Below, piece after piece: positions 3,410 to 59,437 of a DNA stretch of 64,000 nucleotides (position 1 is its first letter; every line of letters starts with the position of its first letter). The notes below the pieces were generated by a model. It was not told the DNA's origin, made no database searches, and saw only the letters and a program-made list of their open reading frames with translations. A program made the translations under genes and the position numbers. This DNA is from a virus (taxonomy: Duplodnaviria; Caudoviricetes): positions 2,138 to 66,137 of IMG/VR virus record IMGVR_UViG_3300044972_000310; one strand, 5' to 3'.

Positions 3410-3446
3410 CAATTTTAAGGTAGAAGGACAATGCAAAAAACAATAA
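3276..3446 (+). CDS. 56-aa small protein not in the ORF track (MWILMLIAVHVNNPQ...SCEVAL...GQCKKQ)
   Basis: AGGAG at 3264-3268, hydrophobic N-terminus, two Cys; overlaps the upstream gene in another frame. Confidence 0.6.
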   Translation: MWILMLIAVHVNNPQDVPGRIELAFKDQMSCEVALASMKWQLKFNNFKVEGQCKKQ

Positions 3447-4147
3447 GCGATAAAATTACTATTGTGGTCCCTTGCAAGAACGAGGAGAACTACATAGCAC
3501 ATCTGCTAATGCACTTGCGCCAGCAATCTATAGGTGACACTAGAATTATCATTGCTGATTGTAGTACGGACAATACACGCGAAGTTATTCAAATAATGAA
3601 AGGTGAACTGAATGTTGAAGTTATCAATGGCGGCCCAGTTAGTCTTGCTAAGAACAATGGAGCTCAACTGGTCACTACTCCTTACATCTTATTCATCGAT
3701 GCCGATGTACGCTTCTTTAAAGATACTGTGATACACGATGCTGTTAACCTAATAGAGTCTAAGAACTTAGATCTCATTGGACTAAACATTAAATGCTATG
3801 ACAAGGACCTACGTGCTAAGATTGGGTTCGCCGCATTCAACCTAATCAATCATGTATTGAAACACGTTAGTCCATTTGCTGTGGGAGCTTTCATGCTGAC
3901 TCGTAGAGATCGTTTTGAAGAGTATGGGGGCTTCCCTGAACAGTTTTCAACCAGCGAAGACTTCTTCTTGTCTCGTAAGTACAGTCCTAAAAAGTTTAGG
4001 ATCATCAAGCATCATTTCGGACAAGATAGCCGTAGATTTAAGAAGATGGGCTATATGGGCATGGCCAAGTACCTAGTCAAGAACTTTGTTAATCGCAACA
4101 ATAAAGCCTACTGGGACAAGTTAGATTCATCTAAGTATTGGGGTTAA
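3431..4147 (+). CDS. Glycosyltransferase family 2
   Basis: IVVPCKNEE, IIADCSTDNT, FIDAD (DxD), GGF and SED motifs. Confidence 0.9.
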   Translation: MQKTISDKITIVVPCKNEENYIAHLLMHLRQQSIGDTRIIIADCSTDNTREVIQIMKGELNVEVINGGPVSLAKNNGAQLVTTPYILFIDADVRFFKDTVIHDAVNLIESKNLDLIGLNIKCYDKDLRAKIGFAAFNLINHVLKHVSPFAVGAFMLTRRDRFEEYGGFPEQFSTSEDFFLSRKYSPKKFRIIKHHFGQDSRRFKKMGYMGMAKYLVKNFVNRNNKAYWDKLDSSKYWG

Positions 4148-4703: not shown

Positions 4704-5081
4704 ATGAAGCGCCTACTAGCCATCACTGCACTGGTCACACTAACAGGGTGTGCTAGTATCATTGACATGATTCCCAGCAAGTGGGATGTCAATCAAGCCA
4801 AGGTTACTACTGACCTAAGACAGGCTACACATAACTTTGACTGCAAGGCAGATCAAAGAGCACAACTTAAAACCATTGCAGAACATGCACAATGGTTTGA
4901 ACTCTACAGTGAAAGCAAAGGCACTAAGGATGTTGCCCAACTAGGCAAGACTCTGCAGGCCACAGTGAAAGAGTTTCGAGATAGAGCACAGCCAGTAAGT
5001 CCTATCTATTGCGATATCAAACGTAAGCTGATGATTCAACAGGCTGACATCATTGCTAAAACAACTCAAGGAAGATTCTAA
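4704..5081 (+). CDS. Lipoprotein, unknown function
   Basis: MKRLLAITALVTLTGC lipobox; start reassigned to ATG 4704. Confidence 0.7.
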   Translation: MKRLLAITALVTLTGCASIIDMIPSKWDVNQAKVTTDLRQATHNFDCKADQRAQLKTIAEHAQWFELYSESKGTKDVAQLGKTLQATVKEFRDRAQPVSPIYCDIKRKLMIQQADIIAKTTQGRF

Positions 5082-35879: not shown

Positions 35880-37853
35880 AATCTTGCTTAAATTAAGGAG
35901 AAAATTATGAGCAAAGTCATCGGTATCGATTTAGGTACAACAAATTCATGTGTAGCTATTATTGAAAATGGCGTCGCAAAAGTTATTGAGAATTCAGAAG
36001 GCGCACGTACTACACCTAGTATTGTTGCATACGCTAATGATGAAATTCTAGTAGGCGCAAGTGCAAAGCGTCAAGCAGTAACAAACCCCAAGAACACAAT
36101 CTATGCTAGCAAGCGACTAATTGGACGTAAGTTTGATGAAGCGGCTGTGCAAAAAGACATTGATCTAATGCCTTACACCATCATCAAGGCAGATAACGGT
36201 GATGCTTGGGTACAGGTAAATGAGGACAAACTAGCACCTCCACAAATTTCAGCTGAAGTACTTCGCAAGATGAAAAAGACTGCTGAGGACTATTTAGGTG
36301 CAGAGGTTACACAGGCAGTTATTACAGTACCAGCTTACTTTAATGACAGCCAACGTCAAGCCACTAAGGATGCAGGTAAGATTGCAGGTCTTGAAGTGCT
36401 ACGTATTATTAACGAGCCTACTGCGGCTGCACTGGCCTACGGTGTTGATAAGGCTGACAAGAAAGACAGCAAAGTTGCAGTATACGACTTGGGTGGTGGA
36501 ACTTTTGATATCTCTATTATTGAGATTGCTAATGTCGATGGCGACAAACAGATTGAAGTGTTAAGTACGAACGGTGATACATTCTTAGGTGGTGAAGACT
36601 TTGACCAACGCATCATGGACTTCTTGGTTGATGAGTTTAAGAAAGAAAATGCAATTGATCTTAAGAAAGACATGCTGGCTCTACAACGCCTAAAAGAGGC
36701 TGCTGAAAAAGCCAAGATTGAATTGTCCAGCAGTGCCAGTACCAGCGTTAACTTGCCCTATATTACAGCAGACGCTAATGGCCCTAAGCATATGAACGTT
36801 ACTATTAGCCGTAGTAAGCTAGAAAGCCTTGTTGAAGAATTGATTCAACGTAGTATTGAGCCATGCCGTATTGCTATTAAAGATGCAGGTGTGGATGTTA
36901 GCGAAATTGACGAGGTTATCCTTGTTGGTGGTATGACACGCATGCCTAAGGTACAAGAAGCAGTTGAGAAGCTGTTCGGTAAGGCTCCACGTAAGGATGT
37001 TAACCCAGACGAAGCAGTTGCAGCGGGTGCGGCTGTACAAGGTGCTGTGCTAGCAGGTGACCGTAATGACGTATTGTTACTTGACGTTACTCCATTGAGC
37101 TTGGGTATCGAGACCATGGGCGGCATTATGGCCAAGTTGATCAACAAGAATACAACTATCCCAACTAAGGCTAGTCAAACATTCTCAACAGCAGAAGACA
37201 ACCAACCAGCAGTTACTATCAAAGCGTTCCAGGGTGAGCGTGACCTAGTACAACATAACAAGCTATTAGGCGAGTTTAACTTAGAAGGTATCCAGCCACA
37301 ACGTCGTGGTCAGCCACAGATCGAAGTTACATTGGATATCGATGCCAACGGTATCATGCACGTAAGTGCTAAAGATAAAACCACTGGTAAAGAAAACAAG
37401 ATTACTATCAAGTCAGACTCGGGTCTAACTAAAGAAGAAATCGAACGTATGGTACAAGAAGCAGAAGTTAACGCAGAGAGTGATAAGAAGACTCGTGAGT
37501 TGATCGAAGCACGTAACCAAGCAGAAGCACAGATCCATAGCATTAAGAAAGATATGGAAGAAGTAGATGCAGAGTTATCGGCCGAAGTTAAAGACAAAGT
37601 TAACGAAGCTATCACTTCAGTAGATGCAGCAATTATCACAGAAGATAAAGATGCCATTACACAAAAACTTAGCGACTTGTTTACTGCGGCTCAACCAGTG
37701 ATGGAAGCTAAACAAAAGAAAGAAGAAGCTAAGAAGAATGAAACTCCGGTAGACGCAGAGTTTACTGAAGTTAACTAACACAGACACACATAATAAATAC
37801 GTGTAGGGCGCTCGGGTGAGGCCCTACTATAATCTTGCTTAAATTAAGGAGAA
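35880..37853 (+). repeat. 23-nt identical leader upstream of dnaK (35880-35902) and hsp20 (37831-37853)
   Basis: AATCTTGCTTAAATTAAGGAGAA occurs twice. Confidence 0.9.
35907..37778 (+). CDS. dnaK: Hsp70 chaperone DnaK
   Basis: [40 protein letters not shown] end. Confidence 0.98.
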
Positions 37854-48241: not shown

Positions 48242-50305
48242 ATGATGAAGAAAATACTATTATCCCCTTGGACAGCACTGGCTACACTAGCCCTGGTGTT
48301 ATTAGTCCGTCTTGTAGATCCTGCGTTTGTAGAACGAGTAAGACTTACTTATTTTGATCAACTAATCACAAGCCAGCAGGCCAAAGATGTTCCTGTTTAC
48401 ACGGTCAACATTGACGAAGCAACATTAGACAAGTTAGGACAGTTTCCGTTCCCTAGAGACATGTATGCTGATATCATCAAAGACTTATACAAGCGTGACG
48501 CTGGACTGGTTGTATTCAATGTGCTTATGCCAGAGAAGGATCGTTTTGGTAAAGATGCGGTGTTAGGTGAAACTCTTAAAAAGTATCCTGTAGTGTTGCC
48601 TGCAATAGGCAGTGAGAAACAAAAGAATACTAATCATGGAACTCCTGCACAGGTAGTAGGTGCTGATCCTGCTGGAATGGTAGTTGAGTATCCGGGATTG
48701 ATCAATAACGTTGAGCCACAAGAAAGCCTTGCCGCTGGTGTTGGCATTGTCAATACATTTCCAGAGATAGATGGTGTTGTTCGTCGTATGCCAATGGTCA
48801 TACTAAGTCAAGAACAACTACATCCTGCACTAGCTCTAGAGACTTTACGTGTCGCGGCCAAGGATCCCAAGTTCCAAGTTAAAATAGGAGACATGGGCGT
48901 GGAGGCGGTGCGTGTTCCTAAGTTTGGTAAAGTACCAACGGACAACGAAGGTCGTGTTTGGATCGATTGGTCGGCCACTCCGAGAGAATACAGCTACATG
49001 AAGTTGCCAGAATCATTCGACGGTGGCATTGTTATTGTTGGACTAAGTGCTGCGGGACTGGCTAATCCAGTTAGTACTGCTAAAGGTGAAGTATGGCCAC
49101 AATATCTACAAGGTGCGGTTATTGGCACTATGATAACACAGAGTAATATACAGCGTCCAGGTTGGGCTGATCAAGCTGAAATCATTGCCTTGCTGGCCGC
49201 AGGCTTGTTGATGCTATTTTTATCAAGGTGGACCTATGCTTTTATTCCTGTTGTTGTCTTTCTCGGTGGCAGTCACTTTGCTATATCTTATCTATATGAA
49301 AACTCCAGAATCCTATTGGACGCCACTTGGTTTGTTGTTGGCTGTAGCTTGGTATACATTCACGCTTATAGTGTCAAATTTCTAAGCGAATACTTACAGA
49401 AGTCACAGATTAAGAAACAGTTCGGATCATATGTAAACCCTATTATTGTAGAACGACTACAAAAGGATCCTAGCTTTATTAAACTGGGCGGTGAGAAGAA
49501 AGAACTTACTGTCATGATGAGTGACATGCGTAACTTTACTGGTTTGGGAGAAACATATGGAGATGATGTTGTGGCATTTACGCATACAATGAATCGTTAC
49601 ATGACTGCCATTGCAGAACCTATACTACGCAACAATGGATGTTTGATCAAGTTCATTGGTGATGCGTCATTACACGTTCACGGTGCTCCTATTCAAGAGG
49701 CGCAAGATCCTGATCACATACTAGCAGGTGTACGTACAGGATTAGAAATGTTACACGCTGTTGAACTGTTTAACATTGAACTAGAGAAAGAGGGCAAGCC
49801 AAAAGTAGGATGCGGAATAGGTATCAACACAGGTCCTACCTTGATTGGTAACATCGGAAGTAAGGATCGATTTGCCTATGACGTATTAGGTGATTCAGTT
49901 AGTCTAACAGCTCGTCTAGAAGGACAGACAAAGAACTATGGTGTGCTGATTATCATTAGTGAAGCTACACAGAGTAGAGTAGGAAATGCTTACTTTACAT
50001 TGCCTTTAGATTGTATTGCGGTCAAGGGTAAGAACATAGGTGTCAATATCTTTACTGTGTTCTACAATCCAGATGAGAATGTAGCAGCAGAATGGCATAG
50101 TGCTAGAGAGCATCATGAACTAATGCTCGAATACTATCGTGAACAAAATTGGGACAAGGCTATTGAACTTTGTCAAGAACTCGTTGGTGAGTTCTATGGT
50201 AATATGGATCACTACTATGAGATATGGATTGAACGTATTGCCGAAATGCGTAGTAGAAATTTAGCCGCAGACTGGGATGGTACTTACAGAGCTACAAGCA
50301 AGTAA
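48242..50305 (+). CDS. CHASE2-domain class III adenylate/guanylate cyclase
   Basis: VNIDE..L...GQFPFPR, DGVVRR (CHASE2), three TMs, SDMRNFT, KFIGDA, GIGINTG, YDVLGDSV..ARLE. Confidence 0.92.
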   Translation: MMKKILLSPWTALATLALVLLVRLVDPAFVERVRLTYFDQLITSQQAKDVPVYTVNIDEATLDKLGQFPFPRDMYADIIKDLYKRDAGLVVFNVLMPEKDRFGKDAVLGETLKKYPVVLPAIGSEKQKNTNHGTPAQVVGADPAGMVVEYPGLINNVEPQESLAAGVGIVNTFPEIDGVVRRMPMVILSQEQLHPALALETLRVAAKDPKFQVKIGDMGVEAVRVPKFGKVPTDNEGRVWIDWSATPREYSYMKLPESFDGGIVIVGLSAAGLANPVSTAKGEVWPQYLQGAVIGTMITQSNIQRPGWADQAEIIALLAAGLLMLFLSRWTYAFIPVVVFLGGSHFAISYLYENSRILLDATWFVVGCSLVYIHAYSVKFLSEYLQKSQIKKQFGSYVNPIIVERLQKDPSFIKLGGEKKELTVMMSDMRNFTGLGETYGDDVVAFTHTMNRYMTAIAEPILRNNGCLIKFIGDASLHVHGAPIQEAQDPDHILAGVRTGLEMLHAVELFNIELEKEGKPKVGCGIGINTGPTLIGNIGSKDRFAYDVLGDSVSLTARLEGQTKNYGVLIIISEATQSRVGNAYFTLPLDCIAVKGKNIGVNIFTVFYNPDENVAAEWHSAREHHELMLEYYREQNWDKAIELCQELVGEFYGNMDHYYEIWIERIAEMRSRNLAADWDGTYRATSK

Positions 50306-51166: not shown

Positions 51167-51195
51167 TTGCGTATAAATACTAGTGACTGTATAAT
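51167..51195 (+). promoter_or_regulatory. sigma70 promoter of the tmRNA gene
   Basis: TTGCGT-17 nt-TATAAT. Confidence 0.7.
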
Positions 51196-51201
51196 AACAG
51201 T

Positions 51202-51583
51202 TATTGTTGTAATCCCTTCAAAGTGAAGGCATTCTGGACGCGGGTTCGACTCCCGCCAGGTCCACCAAAAGGATATTTATGAAGTACACCGCATTGTGCC
51301 CAAGTTGTTTTATTAGATTTAGTTGGGTAATGAGGAAAGGCTTAACAAAACATAAGTGTTTTTCTGATGGGCCTGCCATGGTTTCGACAGGGTGAGATAA
51401 TAGAGACGGCAACACGGTAGGCGATGACCGTAAATCAAGCAAATAAAGTAAATGCAACAGCAAATACATTCGAGTATTTCCAAGTTGACTTCGACGTTAC
51501 AGCAATGAACGACGAGCAATTTGCAATCGCAGCCTAAGAAACTGCAACTCCGGGGTAGGACTTACCTTGTAAAATAAACAACC
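51202..51583 (+). ncRNA. ssrA: Circularly permuted (two-piece) tmRNA
   Basis: The 3' half (T-arm GCGGG-TTCGACT-CCCGC, CAGGTCC-A-CCA ending 51267) precedes the 5' half (GGGCCTG at 51369); acceptor stem has G3.U70; tag frame 51454-51537 ends NDEQFAIAA*. Outer boundaries approximate. Confidence 0.9.
51279..51395 (+). CDS. 38-aa Cys/His ORF in the tmRNA intervening segment
   Basis: AAGGA RBS just after the CCA; MKYTALCPSCFIRFSWVMRKGLTKHKCFSDGPAMVSTG. Confidence 0.4.
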   Translation: MKYTALCPSCFIRFSWVMRKGLTKHKCFSDGPAMVSTG

Positions 51584-51609
51584 ATAGGACCTTCGGGTCC
51601 TATCTTTTT
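51584..51609 (+). terminator. tmRNA terminator
   Basis: ATAGGACC-TTCG-GGTCCTAT-CTTTTT. Confidence 0.85.
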
Positions 51610-51635
51610 GGCTATATTTCCAATATTTCGCATCG

Positions 51636-52644: not shown

Positions 52645-52674
52645 AAAAAAGGGCTCCGAGAGCCCTTTTCTTTT
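52645..52674. terminator. Bidirectional intrinsic terminator
   Basis: AAAAAAGGGCTC-CGA-GAGCCCTTTT. Confidence 0.8.
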
Positions 52675-55600
52675 ATGCCTGCGCTTCGCCCCAACGTAGA
52701 ATAACGTTAGCAGGAGTTGCTGCCCCAGCAACCTTATACACATTAATAGCTAGTACATCGGGACCATTTGGAAATGTGCCTCGACCACCGATAGCTGTAC
52801 TTGTTAGTTCTTTTAGTGTTTCTAATGATAGTGAATCAGTGCCGCCAGGATTAGATACAAAGGAGAACACTTGCTCTCCGGGCAATGCATACTGCGCACC
52901 AAACTGGAACGTTAGTGTAGCAGATGCTGATATTGCTGAATTTGAAGCCTGTGTAAATGATACACGATATACTGTAGTAGCGCCAAATGTTCGAGTAGTA
53001 ATAGCATTAACACTAGTACCAGCTGGAAACTGTGTTTGACTACTAGCTACTCGAGTTCCAATAATAGCTCCTGATGCTAGCCAAGTAGAACCTGTAAAGA
53101 ACAAATAGCTCAATGATGTGTACGTTGATCCACTACCTGCAGCAGTAGTAAGTACTGATTGATCATTACTGACACCGCTTGTACTAGTAGAATTTGCAGC
53201 GGCAGACATTACAATTCTAGTATATGGAACGCTAGATAGTGTTAAGTATGATGGAGTAATACTGAGAATAGTTTGACCACTAGTTAAGAATGTTGCTAAA
53301 CTCAGTACGTCACCTACTGCAATATTAGTTCTATCAGTGGCATCATTTCTAATTAAGAAGTCTGTCCTAGCAGTACTTAATGCTGATCCATATCTAGCAG
53401 TGGCTGCTGATGTTACTGTAACTGTCACGTTATTTCCAGTTCCTGCTACACTAGTAGCAGTACCAAAATTACTCATAATTACTCTTGCGTAAACAACCCC
53501 AGCAATAGTAGTAAAGTTACTGGTAAAGCTAGATATTGTTTGACCGCTAATTAAGAACGTTGTAGCAGACAGCACGTCCGACGTTGCCGCAGAAGTTGCC
53601 CCGTATTGAGTTTGTGTAATTAAGAAGTCTGTTCTAGCAGTGCTTACAGCAGTATTGTACGTAGCAGCTACTGAGCTAGCAAATGATATGTTGTTAACAG
53701 CAGTATTAGAATTACTAGTAAAATTTGCTGTTCCTGTCATAACTATTCTAGCATACGTAGTTGCGCCTATTGTGATAAAATTTTGTGTAATACTAGATAC
53801 TCGTTGACCGCTGGTAACAAAAGTAGTAACACTAATTACATCGTTTACTGCAAGAGGTGTTGTAAATGCTGCAAGAGTTGCCTGCGGAATTAAAAAGTCA
53901 GTTCTCGCAGTGCTGAATGCAAATTGATAAGTAGCATTTTGTGCGCTCGACAGCGCTGGAGCATTGGCAAGTCGACTAACTGCGCTAAATGACACGGCAG
54001 TAAGTGTTGTTGTTGCCGGCGCAAAACTTTTTGCAAGCAATGTAGTAGTAAATGAACCTTGCACAGTGGCAGTTGACGTGCTGACATTGCCTCCCCAAGT
54101 TACAGAACCACCAGATGCAACCTGTGCAAAGCTAGGCTGTCCGCCTGCTGCTGATGAATTTAAACTGTTCCACGAGATTTTAGTCGGATCAGTTGGATAA
54201 TTAATTGGGTTTAACACACCTTCAACAACGATCGCACCGTTATTATTTGGTGTTGCACCGGCCCATGTTAGATTAACACCAAACGTTCCGCTAGCACCTG
54301 TGCCACTTGTAAACGTTGGTGCTGTTGAGCTGAATGTTCCTGTACTAGTTGCTTGGTACCAATTTTTAATTCCGTTTGATACATTGCTATAATATAGCCC
54401 TGAAGTGGCTGTACCGCCGCTCGACCAAGTATTACCAACAAATGGATCTGCAGAATCAACTGGGTCACTAGTCACCGCAATTGAGCTCAATAATAATTGC
54501 GCACGATTTAATAGTTCGCGCTCGCCAAGATCTCCTGTTTGGGCATTACTTACGCTAGGAGCCAAACGAATCAAGAACGCAGTATTTTTATCCACACTGG
54601 CCGAAATACCAGTGGCTGCATAGTTAAAGATGTATCCACGATCTGAATCAAACTGTCCGTCAATCATAAATGCACTACCCCAATGGCTGATAATCGGAGT
54701 AATTGTATTTGATATTAAAACAACACCTGATCCAGCTGAATGGCTGGCTGCAACCCCTCCGGAGAATGTCCTTTGAGCACCTGCCACAAATTGTGTTAAA
54801 TTAGCTCCACGAGTACAACCCGTCAGCGCAGACCCAGTATTACCAGTGTATCGAATCATTTCAGCGTCAACTATAACTGTGCCAGCTGTTGGAAAATAAT
54901 ATGAATCCTGTAATGGTATTGTGGTCTGTGAGCTAGTCATTGAAGACACTAAAACGTCTTTTGCACCCTCGTTGACTACTTCGTAACGAACAGGTTGATT
55001 ACCAGTACGCATATACGCTTCTGTGTTTACATTACTGTTACGGAAACGGTGTGCAAACACATAGTTACCATCTGCGCCACGTAGCATAAAATCAATAAAG
55101 CCAGCACCGTACCAAGTATGCTGGATACCAATCATCTGCATTTTACCAATGTCAATATTATATCCACTAGGACCAGATCCGTTGCACGGATCTAAATTCC
55201 AATCTGCTTGCGGAACAATTAGGTCAACAGTCTTACAAATTTTAACGTTAGATACATCTGCTACACCACGGAAATCAGGAGCAACAGTTAAGCTAGTGTC
55301 ACTGATAATCTGTGTAATAATATGGCTCATTCCTCTAATAACAACTCTATCTCCAGCTGTTAATTGTTGGCTAAATCGAGTATTAGTTCCAGTAACTAGA
55401 TTAGAGTTTGCGGCAACGGATATAACTCCTGCAACCTGAAATGTACTTGACCTACGTACAACAGCTAATGTACGTCCATCATATTGATAGAACATACCGT
55501 TTTGATCATCAAAAATACCTGCACGTACAGTAGAGCCGTGCCATTGTCTCACTGTCATTATACACGGGCTATTTAATGTAGGGGTTGTACTCCCTAGTGT

Positions 55601-58600
55601 TTGGTAAGCAATAACTGAAAATTGACGTTCCGTAATAACATCACTAACAGTATATACTCCATTGTATCCAAATGTAGTAACACCGCTAATAGTAACCTGT
55701 GCTCCAACTTGACATCCATGATCAGTATCATCTGTATTAATTGTAATCACACTGCCGATTGTTGTTCCGGTGGAAGTAATAGTTTGAATATCATAACTAG
55801 GTGCAAATAATGCTCCAGTATTATATGTTACTCCTTTACCTGATTGATAACGAATATATTTCTTACTCATACGGATTGCAGTAGCACCGTGTGCTGATCC
55901 GCCAGTACCTAATTGTACGCCACCGTCAAACGGTCTGTGTACAAAGTAGCTGTCTGGACGAGCATACACGTTACCAATTAATGTATTCTGTATAGCACCA
56001 GTTGCTCGAGCAGTATAGCGCAGAGATGTAGTAGTAGGAACTTGCTCAACAAAGTATGCGCCAGCTGCAAATTGTGCATTTGTGCCGCTACTAGTAATCT
56101 GAACAGTAATAGTACTTCCCGGAACAAATCCGTGTGCAGAAGTGAAGTTAACTTCAACAGTTGAGATAGCACCGTATGTAATGTCAGTATTGCCGCTGGC
56201 AATTTCAGAAGTGGTGATTGCATTAAGTGTAACAGCACTAATAAAGTTTTTAGTAGGAGCACTGATAGGAGTACCTACTGTAGATACAGTTTGTATAGCA
56301 CCGCCAGCTGATACTGATAAAATGTTTATACTTGCTTGTTCACTTACTGAGCTAACTGTAAATCGACCGTTGGTTCCGGACCCACCAATAGTAATAATAT
56401 CACTGAGAGAATAAGCAGATCCCTGTGAGCTAATGTCAAATGACAACACACGCCCGTCAGTGACTGTAAGGACTGTAAGAACTGCATTGTTTCCGCCGCC
56501 GGTAACACTAACTGTATTGCCAGCACTATACCCGCCGCCTGCTGTAGCTATTCCAGCAGCTATAATTGTGCCGGGAACTATATTAGCAGTTCCAGTACCG
56601 CTGCCAACTCCAGTAACGGTAAATTTAAGTCCGGCGGGTGGTTGAGCAGTAATAGTAGTTGATGTACGTAATTGAGAATTGTTAACCGTATACGTTCCCA
56701 GGCCGCCGGCCCCCGAAACAAACCCGGTAATATATGTTCCCGGAGTAATACTACCCCCAGTAATATATGTACCATTTGCTAGGCTACCCGAAGAAACTGC
56801 TGTTATATCAAGAATAGTTCCGGCGCTGCCTGAACCGTTACTGATAGTACCGGTAAACTGGCCTAGAGCAAGGCCGCCAATTGCTACCCAATCTGTTGTG
56901 CCGTTAGTTACGATTTGATAAGAACGCCCTATTATAAAATTACCTGCTGTAGTAGTGTTAGCAGTAGCGGTTCCGGTACCACTGCCGACTCCGGTAGCAG
57001 TAAATGTTGTTCCAACAGTATTGTTTGGCGACCCGATTAGGGTAAAGTCAGTAGTACCTATTGAGACAATATTATAAGATTGATTAATAATAAAATTTCC
57101 AGCAACTGTAGGAGTTTCCGGCAACGCAACACTTATACCAACCGTTAGGCCAATGCCTGAACCAGTTAATGCAGTAGTATTAGCTAGACCGTTAGTGTAT
57201 CCAGATCCACCGTTGGTAACTGCTAATGCGCCATTTGGCACTCCGATAGTATCGGCAACAATGTCAACAGTTAATCCGGTGCCGGTGCCGCCTGTTGTTG
57301 CTATATTATATCCAGTTGTATATCCAGTCCCACTTGATGTTAATATACTTGTACCTATTACTTTACCTACAACAATTGGTATGGTAATAGTATTACCTAC
57401 AACATAACCAGATCCTGCACTGTTAATTGCAACAGCAGTTACAACCCCGCCTGACACCGTAGTATCAACTGTAAGGCCAGTACCGGCAGGTGCAGTGGTC
57501 GCAACATCAGTAGATGCATTATATCCTTTCCCTCCAACTAGTGTAGTATTATCTAAACTTGCTACTGTATTTTTTACACTAGCTGCTGTAACTGTAATAG
57601 TTGCAGTATTTGCAGGTGCTGTTCCCCCAAGATTTGTACCTGCAATTGTTATAGTATCAGTAGCAGTATATCCAGTTCCTGGTGTTGTGACTGTGGTTAG
57701 ATAGGTGCTTCCAGAACGTGACACTATAAATTCACCGTTAATTCCCGTTCCTGACGTTGACGTTTGTGACAACCCTGAATATGATTGATTAGTGCCCAGA
57801 ATGGCGCTAGTTAATGCTCCTCCCAAACTTACAGTATTGCCAGTTACATCAGTAACATTAACGGCATATCCGTTGCCGCGATCAAACACTAATCCTGAAC
57901 TAATACCGGTAGTATCGTTAACTATGATGACAGTATCTCCAATGGCAGCATTTGTAGTTAAGGTTGTTGATGCTGCTGTCCCGCCTGACCCGGTAACCGC
58001 AGTAACTTGGGTACCGGTAGTAACACCAGTACCAGCTAGCGGAGATCCAATTGGCGGTGCTGTACCGGTGAAGCCAATAATATCAACGCCAGCAGGAGTT
58101 ATCAAACTAGTAGTAATATTGCCGCTAGATCCGGCAGAGAAAATGTTAAATGCTGGAGTTCCTACTGAAGAGCCTGTATAAAATGCACCTTTTCGTAGTT
58201 GAGTATAAGTAGAACTTAACTGCTGGCCGTTTGTTGTTCCGACTTTTGATTTAGCATAATATTTAAATGTTACAAGATCCGTAACTTCGGCAATTAAAAA
58301 ACTACCTTCTGCACGGCTAAATCCAGTAACTGAGTTTGCCAGTGCTTTAATTGTAATAGGATCACTTACTACTAACCCATGAGAGTTTAATGTGGTAACA
58401 GTTATTAAACTTGAGCCAGACGCTCCGCTGCCACTACTTGCATCTGTTACCACATTAACTACTGCAATGTCAGATCCTGGGATTTCGTACACTGACGGAT
58501 AATTTCTCATCAATCCAATTGCTTGCCATTTAGTTGGCTGTAGTCCGTACTCAAAGTCAGCATCAAGCATACTTTGTGGAATACCAACTTTTTGACGCTC

Positions 58601-59437
58601 CATAGCATCAGTAGCAATACTGTTAAATCTAACGATTTGTTCTTTACCTTCTACAAATAACTGAATAGCATCAGTTACCATCATAGCACTAGTATCAATA
58701 TCAAATATCAATGTGGTAATTTTTTCATTGCCGTAGAGTGCGCCTGCAAAATCACTATCAAAATTTTCACTATAGGTTAAATCTGCACCCAATGTTGCGT
58801 CTGCAAAGTTATAAAGAATAACGTTACGAGTTGCATTAGTTATTAACAGAATATCTTTAAGTTTAAAGAATCCGGGGAATTTAATGTATCCCCTATTAGA
58901 AACTATAGCTGGTAAACTAACTAAGCCGTTAGTTATAACATTAATAATTGTATTGGTCAAATCTGACAATTTTGTAGCACCGGCTGGCTCAGCAGTATAT
59001 GCATTGTTAATAACTTGAGTTACTATGCTTTGTCTAAATCCAAATGCAACATTTGTTAGAATAAAATTCTGTATTAGATCTCCAATAAATGTATGTACAT
59101 ATACTTCAGGCTGACGTGATCCATCAATTTGAGGAATACCATTTTCAAAATATTTGCTAGCATTATTAACAGTTTGTCTGTTGCCACCTTTACGAAGATC
59201 GCTAATATATCCTTCTAAAATATAACTGACATCTCGTCGACATTTTTCAGCGTTATAAGAGTAGTAAATAAAAGGATAGATGTTGTTGTCAATATTGTAT
59301 TGAATATATGCAATTGCTTCTTCTTGAATAAACTTTTTGTTTAATTCTAAAAGTGCATGAGTGTTGGGATATAAATTTACGTCCGGAACTACTACACCCG
59401 GTACAAACTTATAAGTTGAAATCTGCTTCTTTGCCAT
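52673..59437 (-). CDS. 2254-aa virion structural/fibre-like protein
   Basis: KCRRD..Y module, DADFEYGLQPTKW, RYQSGKG, Gly/Thr repeats, W.E.QA end. Confidence 0.75.
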   Translation of the reverse strand: MAKKQISTYKFVPGVVVPDVNLYPNTHALLELNKKFIQEEAIAYIQYNIDNNIYPFIYYSYNAEKCRRDVSYILEGYISDLRKGGNRQTVNNASKYFENGIPQIDGSRQPEVYVHTFIGDLIQNFILTNVAFGFRQSIVTQVINNAYTAEPAGATKLSDLTNTIINVITNGLVSLPAIVSNRGYIKFPGFFKLKDILLITNATRNVILYNFADATLGADLTYSENFDSDFAGALYGNEKITTLIFDIDTSAMMVTDAIQLFVEGKEQIVRFNSIATDAMERQKVGIPQSMLDADFEYGLQPTKWQAIGLMRNYPSVYEIPGSDIAVVNVVTDASSGSGASGSSLITVTTLNSHGLVVSDPITIKALANSVTGFSRAEGSFLIAEVTDLVTFKYYAKSKVGTTNGQQLSSTYTQLRKGAFYTGSSVGTPAFNIFSAGSSGNITTSLITPAGVDIIGFTGTAPPIGSPLAGTGVTTGTQVTAVTGSGGTAASTTLTTNAAIGDTVIIVNDTTGISSGLVFDRGNGYAVNVTDVTGNTVSLGGALTSAILGTNQSYSGLSQTSTSGTGINGEFIVSRSGSTYLTTVTTPGTGYTATDTITIAGTNLGGTAPANTATITVTAASVKNTVASLDNTTLVGGKGYNASTDVATTAPAGTGLTVDTTVSGGVVTAVAINSAGSGYVVGNTITIPIVVGKVIGTSILTSSGTGYTTGYNIATTGGTGTGLTVDIVADTIGVPNGALAVTNGGSGYTNGLANTTALTGSGIGLTVGISVALPETPTVAGNFIINQSYNIVSIGTTDFTLIGSPNNTVGTTFTATGVGSGTGTATANTTTAGNFIIGRSYQIVTNGTTDWVAIGGLALGQFTGTISNGSGSAGTILDITAVSSGSLANGTYITGGSITPGTYITGFVSGAGGLGTYTVNNSQLRTSTTITAQPPAGLKFTVTGVGSGTGTANIVPGTIIAAGIATAGGGYSAGNTVSVTGGGNNAVLTVLTVTDGRVLSFDISSQGSAYSLSDIITIGGSGTNGRFTVSSVSEQASINILSVSAGGAIQTVSTVGTPISAPTKNFISAVTLNAITTSEIASGNTDITYGAISTVEVNFTSAHGFVPGSTITVQITSSGTNAQFAAGAYFVEQVPTTTSLRYTARATGAIQNTLIGNVYARPDSYFVHRPFDGGVQLGTGGSAHGATAIRMSKKYIRYQSGKGVTYNTGALFAPSYDIQTITSTGTTIGSVITINTDDTDHGCQVGAQVTISGVTTFGYNGVYTVSDVITERQFSVIAYQTLGSTTPTLNSPCIMTVRQWHGSTVRAGIFDDQNGMFYQYDGRTLAVVRRSSTFQVAGVISVAANSNLVTGTNTRFSQQLTAGDRVVIRGMSHIITQIISDTSLTVAPDFRGVADVSNVKICKTVDLIVPQADWNLDPCNGSGPSGYNIDIGKMQMIGIQHTWYGAGFIDFMLRGADGNYVFAHRFRNSNVNTEAYMRTGNQPVRYEVVNEGAKDVLVSSMTSSQTTIPLQDSYYFPTAGTVIVDAEMIRYTGNTGSALTGCTRGANLTQFVAGAQRTFSGGVAASHSAGSGVVLISNTITPIISHWGSAFMIDGQFDSDRGYIFNYAATGISASVDKNTAFLIRLAPSVSNAQTGDLGERELLNRAQLLLSSIAVTSDPVDSADPFVGNTWSSGGTATSGLYYSNVSNGIKNWYQATSTGTFSSTAPTFTSGTGASGTFGVNLTWAGATPNNNGAIVVEGVLNPINYPTDPTKISWNSLNSSAAGGQPSFAQVASGGSVTWGGNVSTSTATVQGSFTTTLLAKSFAPATTTLTAVSFSAVSRLANAPALSSAQNATYQFAFSTARTDFLIPQATLAAFTTPLAVNDVISVTTFVTSGQRVSSITQNFITIGATTYARIVMTGTANFTSNSNTAVNNISFASSVAATYNTAVSTARTDFLITQTQYGATSAATSDVLSATTFLISGQTISSFTSNFTTIAGVVYARVIMSNFGTATSVAGTGNNVTVTVTSAATARYGSALSTARTDFLIRNDATDRTNIAVGDVLSLATFLTSGQTILSITPSYLTLSSVPYTRIVMSAAANSTSTSGVSNDQSVLTTAAGSGSTYTSLSYLFFTGSTWLASGAIIGTRVASSQTQFPAGTSVNAITTRTFGATTVYRVSFTQASNSAISASATLTFQFGAQYALPGEQVFSFVSNPGGTDSLSLETLKELTSTAIGGRGTFPNGPDVLAINVYKVAGAATPANVILRWGEAQA

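Follow-up and report, generated by a model that had tools for sequence, protein, structure and literature searches.

The subject of this analysis is a permuted (two-piece) transfer-messenger RNA (tmRNA) gene in a 64,000-nucleotide (nt) stretch of virus DNA (positions 2,138 to 66,137 of IMG/VR record IMGVR_UViG_3300044972_000310; Duplodnaviria, Caudoviricetes), hereafter the window, and, in particular, a short open reading frame (ORF) within the intervening segment (IVS) that separates the two pieces of that gene and is predicted to be removed on maturation. The window is a 64-kb part of a 66-kb record, the completeness of which CheckV estimates at 16%; related phage contigs reach 320-365 kb, and the source, an uncultured virus, is therefore considered a jumbo phage. 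Comparative analysis indicates that the ORF is very likely to be a genuine protein-coding gene, the translation of which we infer, and that the IVS is a general slot for small ORFs in this group of phages. The explanation we favor, and consider fairly likely as a whole, is that a real gene for a Cys2-His-Cys mini-protein resides, as a cassette, in the IVS of a jumbo-phage tmRNA and is expressed from the precursor of that RNA.

The reading frame in the window

In the window, the CCA end of the acceptor piece (51265-51267) is followed directly by AAAGGA (51268-51273) and then by an ATG codon (51279-51281), which opens a frame translated as MKYTALCPSCFIRFSWVMRKGLTKHKCFSDGPAMVSTG, with C7-P-S-C10 followed, after 14 residues, by H25-K-C27. 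The part of the ORF located in the IVS encodes MKYTALCPSCFIRFSWVMRKGLTKHKCFSD, and the tRNA-like domain of the coding piece adds GPAMVSTG before the TGA codon at 51393-51395. The earlier note on this DNA had reported this arrangement, that is, AAGGA after the CCA, the start at 51279, 38 codons containing CPSC-x14-HKC, and the stop at 51395, and every one of these coordinates was verified in the sequence. Viewed by itself, the open frame is not significant: from the ATG to the end of the IVS, the 30-codon frame survives in 12% of mononucleotide shuffles (p ~0.12, for the window copy, L001), and a Cys/His motif in one peptide proves nothing.

Conservation of the mini-protein family

The relatives of this cassette are all metagenomic, and the variants are related to one another, so that counts of sequences are not counts of events. 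A degenerate DNA pattern for MKYTALCPxCF picked out 25 viral stretches; over all loci, it yielded 31 matches that represent 12 distinct DNA variants, and each of the 12 sits immediately after the ...CAGGTCCACCA AAAGGATATTT of a tmRNA. With looser DNA patterns, a second subfamily, MK[HN]RYTALCPTCF..., was identified in IVS of 107 nt, at one viral and 11 metagenome loci. The family thus comprises 22 distinct IVS variants, 12 of 101 nt and 10 of 107 nt, the two length classes being separated by one in-frame 6-nt indel, with frameshifts in 0 of the 22 and stops in 0 of the 22. Searching a profile of the 30 IVS-encoded residues against 1.84 billion representatives gave three true matches (E-values of 3.7e-20, 8.3e-14, and 1.6e-10), all three of which keep CPxC...HKC. 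Three weaker matches (E-values of 2e-6 to 4e-4) were discounted: they align to 12-16 positions of the profile, two of them are located in long proteins (669 and 731 residues), and P0006 (149 residues) is repetitive.

One member of the family is free-standing. In L220, which belongs to the same contig as L230, a 32-residue copy, MKYAYTAMCPKCFIRFSWTKEKGLSKHKCVYT, has an AAGGA and a TAG stop of its own and is flanked by the genes for tRNA-Arg(tct) and tRNA-Thr(tgt), with the second of these 14 nt downstream of it; neither Rfam nor folding detected a tmRNA remnant in the spacer upstream of this copy. The existence of this copy implies that about 30 residues suffice for the protein, and, given that it has its own stop and no tmRNA around it, that the function of the protein is independent of the tmRNA context.

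Pairwise comparisons show purifying selection at the protein level, as judged from the pattern of substitutions. The ratio of non-synonymous to synonymous divergence (dN/dS) is 0.11 between the window and L220 (Fisher p 4e-4; 10.5 differences over 15.3 synonymous sites and 13.5 over 74.7 non-synonymous sites), 0.18 between L219 and L220 (p 0.0017), and 0.23 between the window and L219 (p 0.024), the last comparison being that of the two IVS-borne subfamilies. The differences in this analysis are distributed 6/6/12 over the codon positions, and stops are present in both alternative frames. Our verdict that the ORF is very likely a protein-coding gene follows from the combination of a frame kept in 22 variants, dN/dS of 0.11-0.23, and stops in the other two frames.

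The constraint is unevenly spread along the protein. Among the 22 distinct cores, F14, W16, G21, L22, K26, and C27 are invariant, H25 and K24 are each kept in 21, R13 in 20, and K20 in 18, and, except for a single Asn and a single Ile at K20, the deviations at R13, K20, and K24 exchange Arg and Lys. Positions 9, 12, 15, and 17-19 vary freely. C7 and C10 are likewise present in all 22 cores, but the stretch from Y3 to F11 was preset by the DNA search patterns, so that these two residues are assessed without bias only in the three profile matches, in which the stretch is retained. Aligning the IVS of relatives, as the earlier note had proposed, thus bears out the frame (22/22), C27 (22/22), H25 (21/22), and the Shine-Dalgarno (SD) element, which is AAGGA in 16/22 variants and AAAGA in 6/22. 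The idea of a dual-function locus, in which the spacer excised from a tmRNA contains a gene for a mini-protein, is likewise backed by the comparative evidence for coding.

The tmRNAs that contain the window cassette encode at least five different tags, each of which also accompanies other cassettes, a distribution that shows exchange of cassettes between tmRNA backbones.

The intervening segment as a cassette slot

Two samples of tmRNA genes were analyzed. The first consists of 80 syntenic loci, collected via a neighboring 299-residue protein and, accordingly, not selected for the presence of an SD element. ARAGORN detected a permuted tmRNA in 40 of these 80 loci, or in 43 of 83 sources when the window, its own copy, and Xanthomonas phage XacN1 are included, and at least four additional loci (L004-L007) contain a permuted tmRNA that the program missed owing to an odd T-loop. 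The tmRNA bodies in this sample are similar to one another, and the IVS are hypervariable, with 24 distinct segments of 24-232 nt. Eleven of the 24 combine (T/A)AAGGA(G) with a nearby start and an IVS-filling ORF; in the remaining 13, the SD element and the ORF are both absent, and no frame-filling ORF was found in the IVS of this sample that lack the SD element.

The second sample was retrieved with the pattern CCA-N-AAGGA and is, therefore, biased with respect to the SD element but unbiased with respect to the open frame. Pooled, the two samples include 109 permuted tmRNAs with 73 distinct, non-empty IVS. An SD element and a start are present in 57 of these, and in 53 of the 57, the frame is open to within 13 nt of the end of the IVS or beyond; the shuffle expectation is 6.7 of 57, and none of 20,000 simulated sets exceeded 16. 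Crude clustering of the SD-led ORFs produced 36 groups, including a few trivial ones, which amount to about 30 unrelated families. Their products include many hydrophobic peptides of 19-26 residues, several soluble proteins of 50-70 residues, and two full-length DUF2061 proteins. The latter, encoded by 69-codon membrane-protein genes in L061 (3453-3659) and L146 (6984-7190), exactly fill the respective IVS, starting 3 nt past AAGGA and stopping at a TGA located 1 nt ahead of the RNase P site, and match PF09834 over the entire profile (1-52 of 52) with E-values of 3.5e-20 (L061) and 3.7e-21 (L146). Eleven pairs of cassettes could be compared, and in all 11, the ratio of non-synonymous to synonymous polymorphism (pN/pS) is 0.17-0.39, with p<0.05 in 7.

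The ends of the IVS are themselves conserved, with (T/A)AAGGA on the 5' side and TTNTGAT on the 3' side; positions -7 to -1 are kept in 66-70 of the 73 IVS, the exception being -5, with A in 50 IVS and T in 16. For 30 of the 57 SD-led ORFs, the stop is the conserved TGA located 1 nt ahead of the RNase P site; 9 end at -12/-13, 14 continue beyond the RNase P site, and 4 terminate early. On the strength of the open frames, the diversity of products, and the pN/pS values, the IVS in this phage group is shown, in the genomes sampled, to be a general cargo slot for small ORFs.

Several features of these loci merit separate mention. Strongly hydrophobic, single-helix peptides of 19-32 residues are encoded behind a strong TAAGGAG in many IVS (L009, L049, L043, L106, L112, L118, L132, L137, L175, L183, L107, and L195), with pN/pS of 0.17-0.34 where this could be tested. 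In L008, an intact tRNA-Arg(ccg) gene (3537-3611) is located inside the IVS of a tmRNA (3434-3894) with a tag resembling that of the window, and L029 has the same IVS. Very short IVS, of 24-29 nt (L038, L003, L040, L078, and L064), are devoid of ORFs and contain hexamers similar to TATAAT or TATAAG. An unusual T-arm, CGCGGGGGCAGTGCCCGCC, replaces GGTTCGA in L004-L007 and in ten further loci (the L190 group) that bear the same cassette as the window, and these tmRNAs are not called by ARAGORN. About 0.7 kb downstream of the cassette-bearing tmRNA in L219, ARAGORN predicts an amber-reading tRNA with a CTA anticodon ('tRNA-Pyl', 4704-4780). Finally, Xanthomonas phage XacN1 (L002, AP018399.1) encodes a permuted tmRNA (37201-37621; tag ANANTFDYALAA) that is not annotated in its record and has two 'tRNA-Sup' genes about 1 kb upstream; the 114-nt IVS of this tmRNA contains no SD-led ORF.

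Searches of cultured phages and of genome contigs added little. A tblastn search with the neighboring 299-residue protein against cultured phages gave no match; matches of the window tmRNA to the same phages by blastn were confined to the conserved acceptor and T-arm and covered no more than 15% of the query. A scan of genome contigs with a T-arm/acceptor pattern yielded mostly ordinary tRNA genes, and the 80 loci that were kept included four one-piece and no permuted tmRNAs, an outcome that is uninformative with regard to hosts.

Where the frame ends

The RNase P site, which here and throughout is a predicted one, is crossed by the frame in all 22 IVS-borne variants, in agreement with the claim of the earlier note that the ORF has no stop in the IVS, and in each case, the conserved TGA lies 1 nt out of frame. 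A ribosome translating the frame must, therefore, continue into the tRNA-like domain, in the window as far as +27. The position of the stop varies with the tmRNA body: it ends at +12 in the 107-nt subfamily, with two different acceptor stems, at +27 in the window and five other variants, and at +57, +60, +69, and +90 with other tmRNA bodies. Accordingly, the C-terminal tail is set by the tmRNA body and is not a conserved part of the protein. A frame-0 stop no more than 30 nt past the RNase P site occurs in 12 of 16 tmRNA bodies that bear the cassette of this family compared with 19 of 61 others, which is a weak hint of an adapted early stop; we keep it as a hint only because the tmRNA bodies share ancestry.

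RNA structure of the intervening segment

The IVS of the window is predicted to fold end to end (-23.3 kcal/mol, z -2.3), a stability equaled by 3 of 200 shuffled sequences. The resulting closing stem, of 12-13 base pairs (bp) overall, includes 12 pairs that RNAalifold finds intact in all 22 aligned sequences. Three of the pairs vary, always on one side, and there are 0 double compensatory changes; the changes G.U to A-U (G4 to A, 6 sequences) and G.U to G-C (U99 to C, 10 sequences) strengthen the stem, and a single change of G-C to G.U, in one sequence, weakens it. The property extends beyond the family: among the 68 distinct IVS of at least 50 nt, 57 close end to end with at least 8 pairs, and the mean number of pairs is 10.9, compared with 4.9 when the tail is shuffled. 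The conserved ends of the IVS would, then, be the two strands of a predicted precursor helix that abuts the acceptor stem, and the coding cassettes appear to use the 5' strand of this helix as the SD element and the 3' strand for the stop.

The protein

The product is probably a mini-protein of about 30 residues with a Cys2-His-Cys motif, predicted to form a zinc-binding beta-hairpin knuckle. AlphaFold2, with an alignment of 16 rows, models a beta hairpin (2-6/13-17) with CPxC at its tip, and the part containing HKC and the tail are poorly defined in the model. ESM Atlas has nothing reaching 0.9 for the window peptide, Foldseek found nothing in the PDB at E<=0.001 (best E-value, 6.5), and a wide VIA-align search returned a single chain with a Z of 2.2, that is, no fold match. 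The motif and its conservation make a CCHC zinc knuckle a plausible reading, and we lean, by a small margin, toward actual binding of zinc. The similarity to CCHC zinc knuckles and small zinc ribbons consists in the very small size of the mini-protein, with CPxC at a predicted hairpin tip and a His/Cys pair 14 residues further on; unlike those domains, the mini-protein has no Pfam or fold match, and in one variant, Tyr takes the place of His. The H-x-C spacing is unusual for zinc knuckles and ribbons.

Proposed expression from the precursor, and the alternatives

Our proposal is that the ORF is transcribed from the tmRNA promoter, within the precursor. The SD element and the AUG would emerge some 70-80 nt ahead of their pairing partner and of the 5' acceptor strand, and a ribosome could load on the nascent, unprocessed precursor, read over the RNase P site, and terminate at +27. 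The closing stem and the tRNA-like domain would fold afterwards, and RNase P would cut; with its start hidden in a closed hairpin, the excised IVS would probably be discarded. Under this scheme, translation and maturation would be sequential and, for each transcript, mutually exclusive. The predicted sequestration of the SD element and the AUG by the closing stem makes translation from the nascent precursor the more likely course; that the mini-protein is made chiefly from the precursor is, in our estimate, a proposition with roughly even chances. When translation takes place, whether zinc is bound, and whether the IVS is discarded are all parts of the scheme that we infer from the sequences and the predicted structures.

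RNA libraries contain relevant nucleic acid. Parts of the locus occur in sixteen RNA-library runs, in each case as assembled contigs, and four of these runs (X1-X4, from four studies) were compared with the locus, with the reservation that contigs cannot reveal RNA ends. A 188-nt contig from X4 (51226-51413) spans both borders of the IVS with a single difference, T51313A, that corresponds to an I12N variant, and a 109-nt contig from X3 (51291-51399) reaches across the RNase P site, with 78 nt upstream of it and 31 nt downstream. The contigs of X1 and X2, and another one from X4, connect the tmRNA halves via other IVS (the X1/X2 joints are 51267->51367 and 51267->51360), and no contig in X1 or X2 lies on the IVS of the window, which is evidence for neither side. 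These contigs show only that the unprocessed arrangement is present in the nucleic acid of RNA libraries.

A number of observations weigh against the explanation we favor. At the protein level, the AlphaFold2 model is of mediocre quality (predicted local distance difference test, pLDDT, 68; predicted template modeling score, pTM, 0.32), Pfam has no match for the window peptide at E<=1, and the best PHROG match, phrog_27447, is not significant (E 0.032); the His position is occupied by Tyr in one variant (L226), and the conservation of C7 and C10 is partly built in by the search patterns. At the level of the RNA, the SD element is reduced to AAAGA in 6 of the 22 variants, the closing stem is predicted to engage both the SD element and the AUG, and the ends of the IVS are near-invariant even at synonymous sites, so that some of the conservation acts on the RNA. 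Furthermore, the 22 family variants and the 57 SD-led IVS share phylogenetic history and are not independent, the apparent conservation is inflated by recent spread, and the RNA-library contigs may stem from contaminating DNA.

Among the alternatives, the one advanced by the earlier note considers the excised IVS to be the message, a non-stop mRNA with an SD element, at the 3' end of which ribosomes would stall and be rescued, and their products tagged, by tmRNA, with the peptide or its tagging sensing or regulating maturation. The anatomy is what this model calls for, given that, in all 22 IVS-borne variants, the frame reaches the RNase P site without meeting a stop, even though a TGA lies 1 nt off-frame, whereas the free-standing homolog does have its own stop; the excess of early frame-0 stops (12/16 vs 19/61), weak as this hint is, would favor translation of the precursor over that of the fragment. 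A purposeful substrate is another matter. Stops within the IVS in 39 of the 57 SD-led ORFs, all from other families, imply that ending without a stop is not a property of the slot; the SD element and the AUG in the excised IVS are predicted to be sequestered in a stem of 12-13 bp, which speaks against its efficient translation; the downstream stop varies in position (+12 to +90); the same protein occurs outside any tmRNA; and no observation ties the peptide to RNase P, SmpB, or tmRNA. We, therefore, regard this model as unlikely: of the suggestion that the fragment is a tmRNA substrate, the anatomy stands in 22 of 22 variants and the purpose is unsupported, and we found no evidence that the mini-protein reports on or regulates tmRNA processing, the downstream stop being unconserved and a homolog being free-standing.

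In a more elaborate version, to which we assign a similarly low probability, the precursors of two-piece phage tmRNAs would double as mRNAs, with the IVS as a hypervariable, recombination-shuffled slot for small proteins, and the frame would cross the RNase P site deliberately, so that each transcript would be either translated, the ribosome unfolding the acceptor stem, or matured, and ribosomes trapped by cleavage would be rescued and tagged by new tmRNA. If true, the level of the mini-protein would be coupled to the rate of tmRNA maturation, creating feedback between a ribosome-rescue RNA and the protein encoded within it.

The opposite possibility is that the sequence is maintained solely as the closing hairpin of the precursor, the ORF being a hitch-hiking or recently captured mini-gene from a tRNA spacer that is no longer translated in its present location. 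The invariance of the IVS ends at synonymous sites is what such a scenario predicts, as are the changes G4 to A (6 sequences) and U99 to C (10 sequences) that strengthen stem pairs, the former weakening the SD element at the same time, along with the presence of closing stems in coding and non-coding IVS alike and the existence of IVS without ORFs. However, purifying selection is detectable between the two IVS-borne subfamilies (window vs L219, dN/dS 0.23, p 0.024), the sole indel among the 22 variants is an in-frame one of 6 nt, and changes at K20, G21, T23, and K26 are synonymous or exchange Lys and Arg, with residues 9, 12, 15, and 17-19 being free; nor can RNA structure account for the 53 of 57 open frames in unrelated cassettes or for the DUF2061 genes. 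The codon-level data appear to contradict a role for the RNA only, and we consider it improbable.

A programmed -1 slip on GUUUUUC, leading to the conserved UGA at the end of the IVS and a 29-residue product, would bring the family in line with most other cassettes, which use that TGA, and the -1 frame of the window indeed reads TTT TTC TGA (51359-51367); but each of the 10 variants with a 107-nt IVS has an interrupted U run (GTCTTTC), a canonical X XXY YYZ heptamer is lacking, and the only candidate for a downstream stimulatory structure is the tRNA-like domain, so that, the U run being unconserved, the idea was rejected as very improbable. The possibility that the open frame and the Cys/His pattern both arose by chance in an AT-rich spacer, which the 12% of window shuffles that keep 30 codons open would by themselves allow, is, as judged from the codon-level data, refuted by dN/dS, the free-standing homolog, and the other comparative evidence, leaving it a negligible probability.

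The tmRNA and its transcription unit

The identification of the tmRNA is solid. ARAGORN reports a single permuted tmRNA in the window, at 51175-51628, and the scores against the covariance models are 135 bits for RF04321 (tmRNA_permuted; cut-off 47), the alignment of which begins at 51205, and 134.2 bits for RF01850 (cut-off 84). In the model alignment, the upstream acceptor strand CAGGTCC-ACCA, ending at 51267, forms 7 bp with GGGCCTG (51369-51375), the third pair being G.U, and the tag frame, ATANTFEYFQVDFDVTAMNDEQFAIAA*, has a hydrophobic ..AA-stop end. Permuted tmRNA precursors are probably processed by RNase P and tRNase Z (PMC3985003). The promoter-like TTGCGT-N17-TATAAT aligns with the UUGA...UAuAAU promoter positions of the Rfam beta_tmRNA model; it is absent from the output of the consensus scan, its -35 hexamer agreeing in only 3 of 6 positions. 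The promoter-like element and a terminator-like hairpin flank the tmRNA, which places the ORF within a compact, self-contained RNA gene (Table 1).

Table 1. Features of the permuted tmRNA locus (coordinates of the window)
Feature	Position	Strand	Basis or remark
Promoter-like TTGCGT-N17-TATAAT	51167..51195	+	-10 at 51190-51195; upstream of the precursor; predicted
Acceptor piece: T-arm, 3' acceptor strand CAGGTCC, ACCA at 51264-51267	51205..51267	+	RF04321; ARAGORN 3' tRNA domain
IVS, 101 nt, between the CCA end and G+1	51268..51368	+	Predicted removal on maturation
SD-like AAGGA, 5 nt ahead of the ATG	51269..51273	+	Read from the sequence
IVS closing stem, 5' strand, spanning the SD element and AUG	51269..51281	+	Minimum free energy fold; RNAalifold
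38-codon ORF, CPxC...HKC mini-protein	51279..51395	+	30 codons in the IVS and 8 from the tRNA-like domain, TGA
IVS closing stem, 3' strand, codons H25-K26-C27-F28 and U run	51351..51363	+	Minimum free energy fold; RNAalifold
Conserved TGA at the 3' end of the IVS (..TTNTGAT/G), frame -1 relative to the ORF	51365..51367	+	Stop codon of most other cassettes
Predicted RNase P cut	51368/51369	+	G+1 of the coding piece is 51369
Coding piece, 5' tRNA-like domain with acceptor strand GGGCCTG and G3.U pair	51369..51395	+	ARAGORN 5' tRNA domain; RF04321 pairing
Tag reading frame ATANTFEYFQVDFDVTAMNDEQFAIAA*	51454..51537	+	ARAGORN; Rfam alignment ends GCCUAA at 51537
Terminator-like hairpin and T run, end of the tmRNA unit	51584..51610	+	Final helix in the RF01850 alignment

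The tags of many of these phage tmRNAs, that of the window (51454-51537) among them, are unusually long at 26-30 residues, ANADTFDFSAMSFTGNTVSGKSKVALAA being an example, and an ordinary 10-residue tag, ANDEQFALAA, is found alongside them in relatives. Upstream of the tmRNA, at a distance of 0.9 kb, the window encodes a 687-residue protein (48242-50305, + strand) that combines a CHASE2 domain with an adenylate/guanylate cyclase domain (PF05226, E 7.6e-37; PF00211, E 3.1e-15), and downstream, on the opposite strand (52673-59437, -), there is a repetitive, Thr/Ser/Gly-rich ORF of 2254 residues, presumably structural.

Relation to known systems

The tmRNA of the window conforms to the order of permuted tmRNA genes (RF04321/RF01850, beta_tmRNA), namely, an acceptor piece with the CCA, the IVS, the coding piece, the tag, and the terminator, but departs from those described in that their IVS is regarded as a discarded spacer, whereas here, it is an SD-led coding cassette. 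According to the paper on the 2025 tmRNA database, which contains 11,946 permuted sequences and 79 phage sequences, one IVS includes a tRNA-Ala gene, a case called 'unique', another contains a repetitive element, and group I introns, some with homing-endonuclease genes, interrupt the T-loop of some tmRNAs (PMC11915505); the word 'ORF' does not occur in the main text of that paper. The window shares with the cases recorded in that text a second gene within a segment that is removed from the tmRNA precursor, and differs from them in that the cargo is a small, ordinary ORF freed by tRNA-type processing rather than a tRNA, a repeat, or an intron homing endonuclease (PMC11915505). The paper on phage Melnitz counts 53 two-piece tmRNAs in phage genomes, and its passages on these genes do not discuss the IVS (PMC9004378). 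No description of a protein-coding ORF within the intervening segment of a tmRNA turned up in our literature search, with the proviso that supplements of tmRNA papers might list the contents of IVS.

Transcripts that combine tRNAs with mRNAs, and small ORFs in phage tRNA arrays, are known, as in the thrU-tufB operon of Escherichia coli and the tRNA region of phage T4. As in these cases, the mRNA in the window would be co-transcribed with a tRNA-like RNA from which RNase P separates it, and the L220 copy actually lies between tRNAs; unlike in these cases, the ORF of the window is nested between the halves of one RNA gene, and its frame enters the functional RNA. In another class of loci, dual-function RNAs, such as SgrS/SgrT, RNAIII/delta-haemolysin, and SR1/SR1P, encode a small protein, and the mature RNA itself is the mRNA. 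These have in common with the window the origin of a functional RNA and a small protein from one transcript, with the difference that, in the window, the protein is encoded in the segment that the functional RNA loses on maturation.

Implications

Taken together, these findings suggest that a phage lineage has turned a supposedly discarded spacer into a gene slot, in which about 30 unrelated families of ORFs are swapped among similar tmRNA genes; the SD element adjoins the CCA end directly, and the RNase P leader often provides the stop codon. This would be a new mode of nesting a protein gene within a structural RNA gene. The slot is also a potential source of highly expressed phage micro-proteins, which annotation pipelines either miss or report while overlooking the tmRNA around them, and the IVS, thus, appears worth checking by annotators of tmRNAs and of small proteins alike. 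Moreover, these loci could provide a natural system in which translation, RNA folding, and RNase P compete on one transcript.

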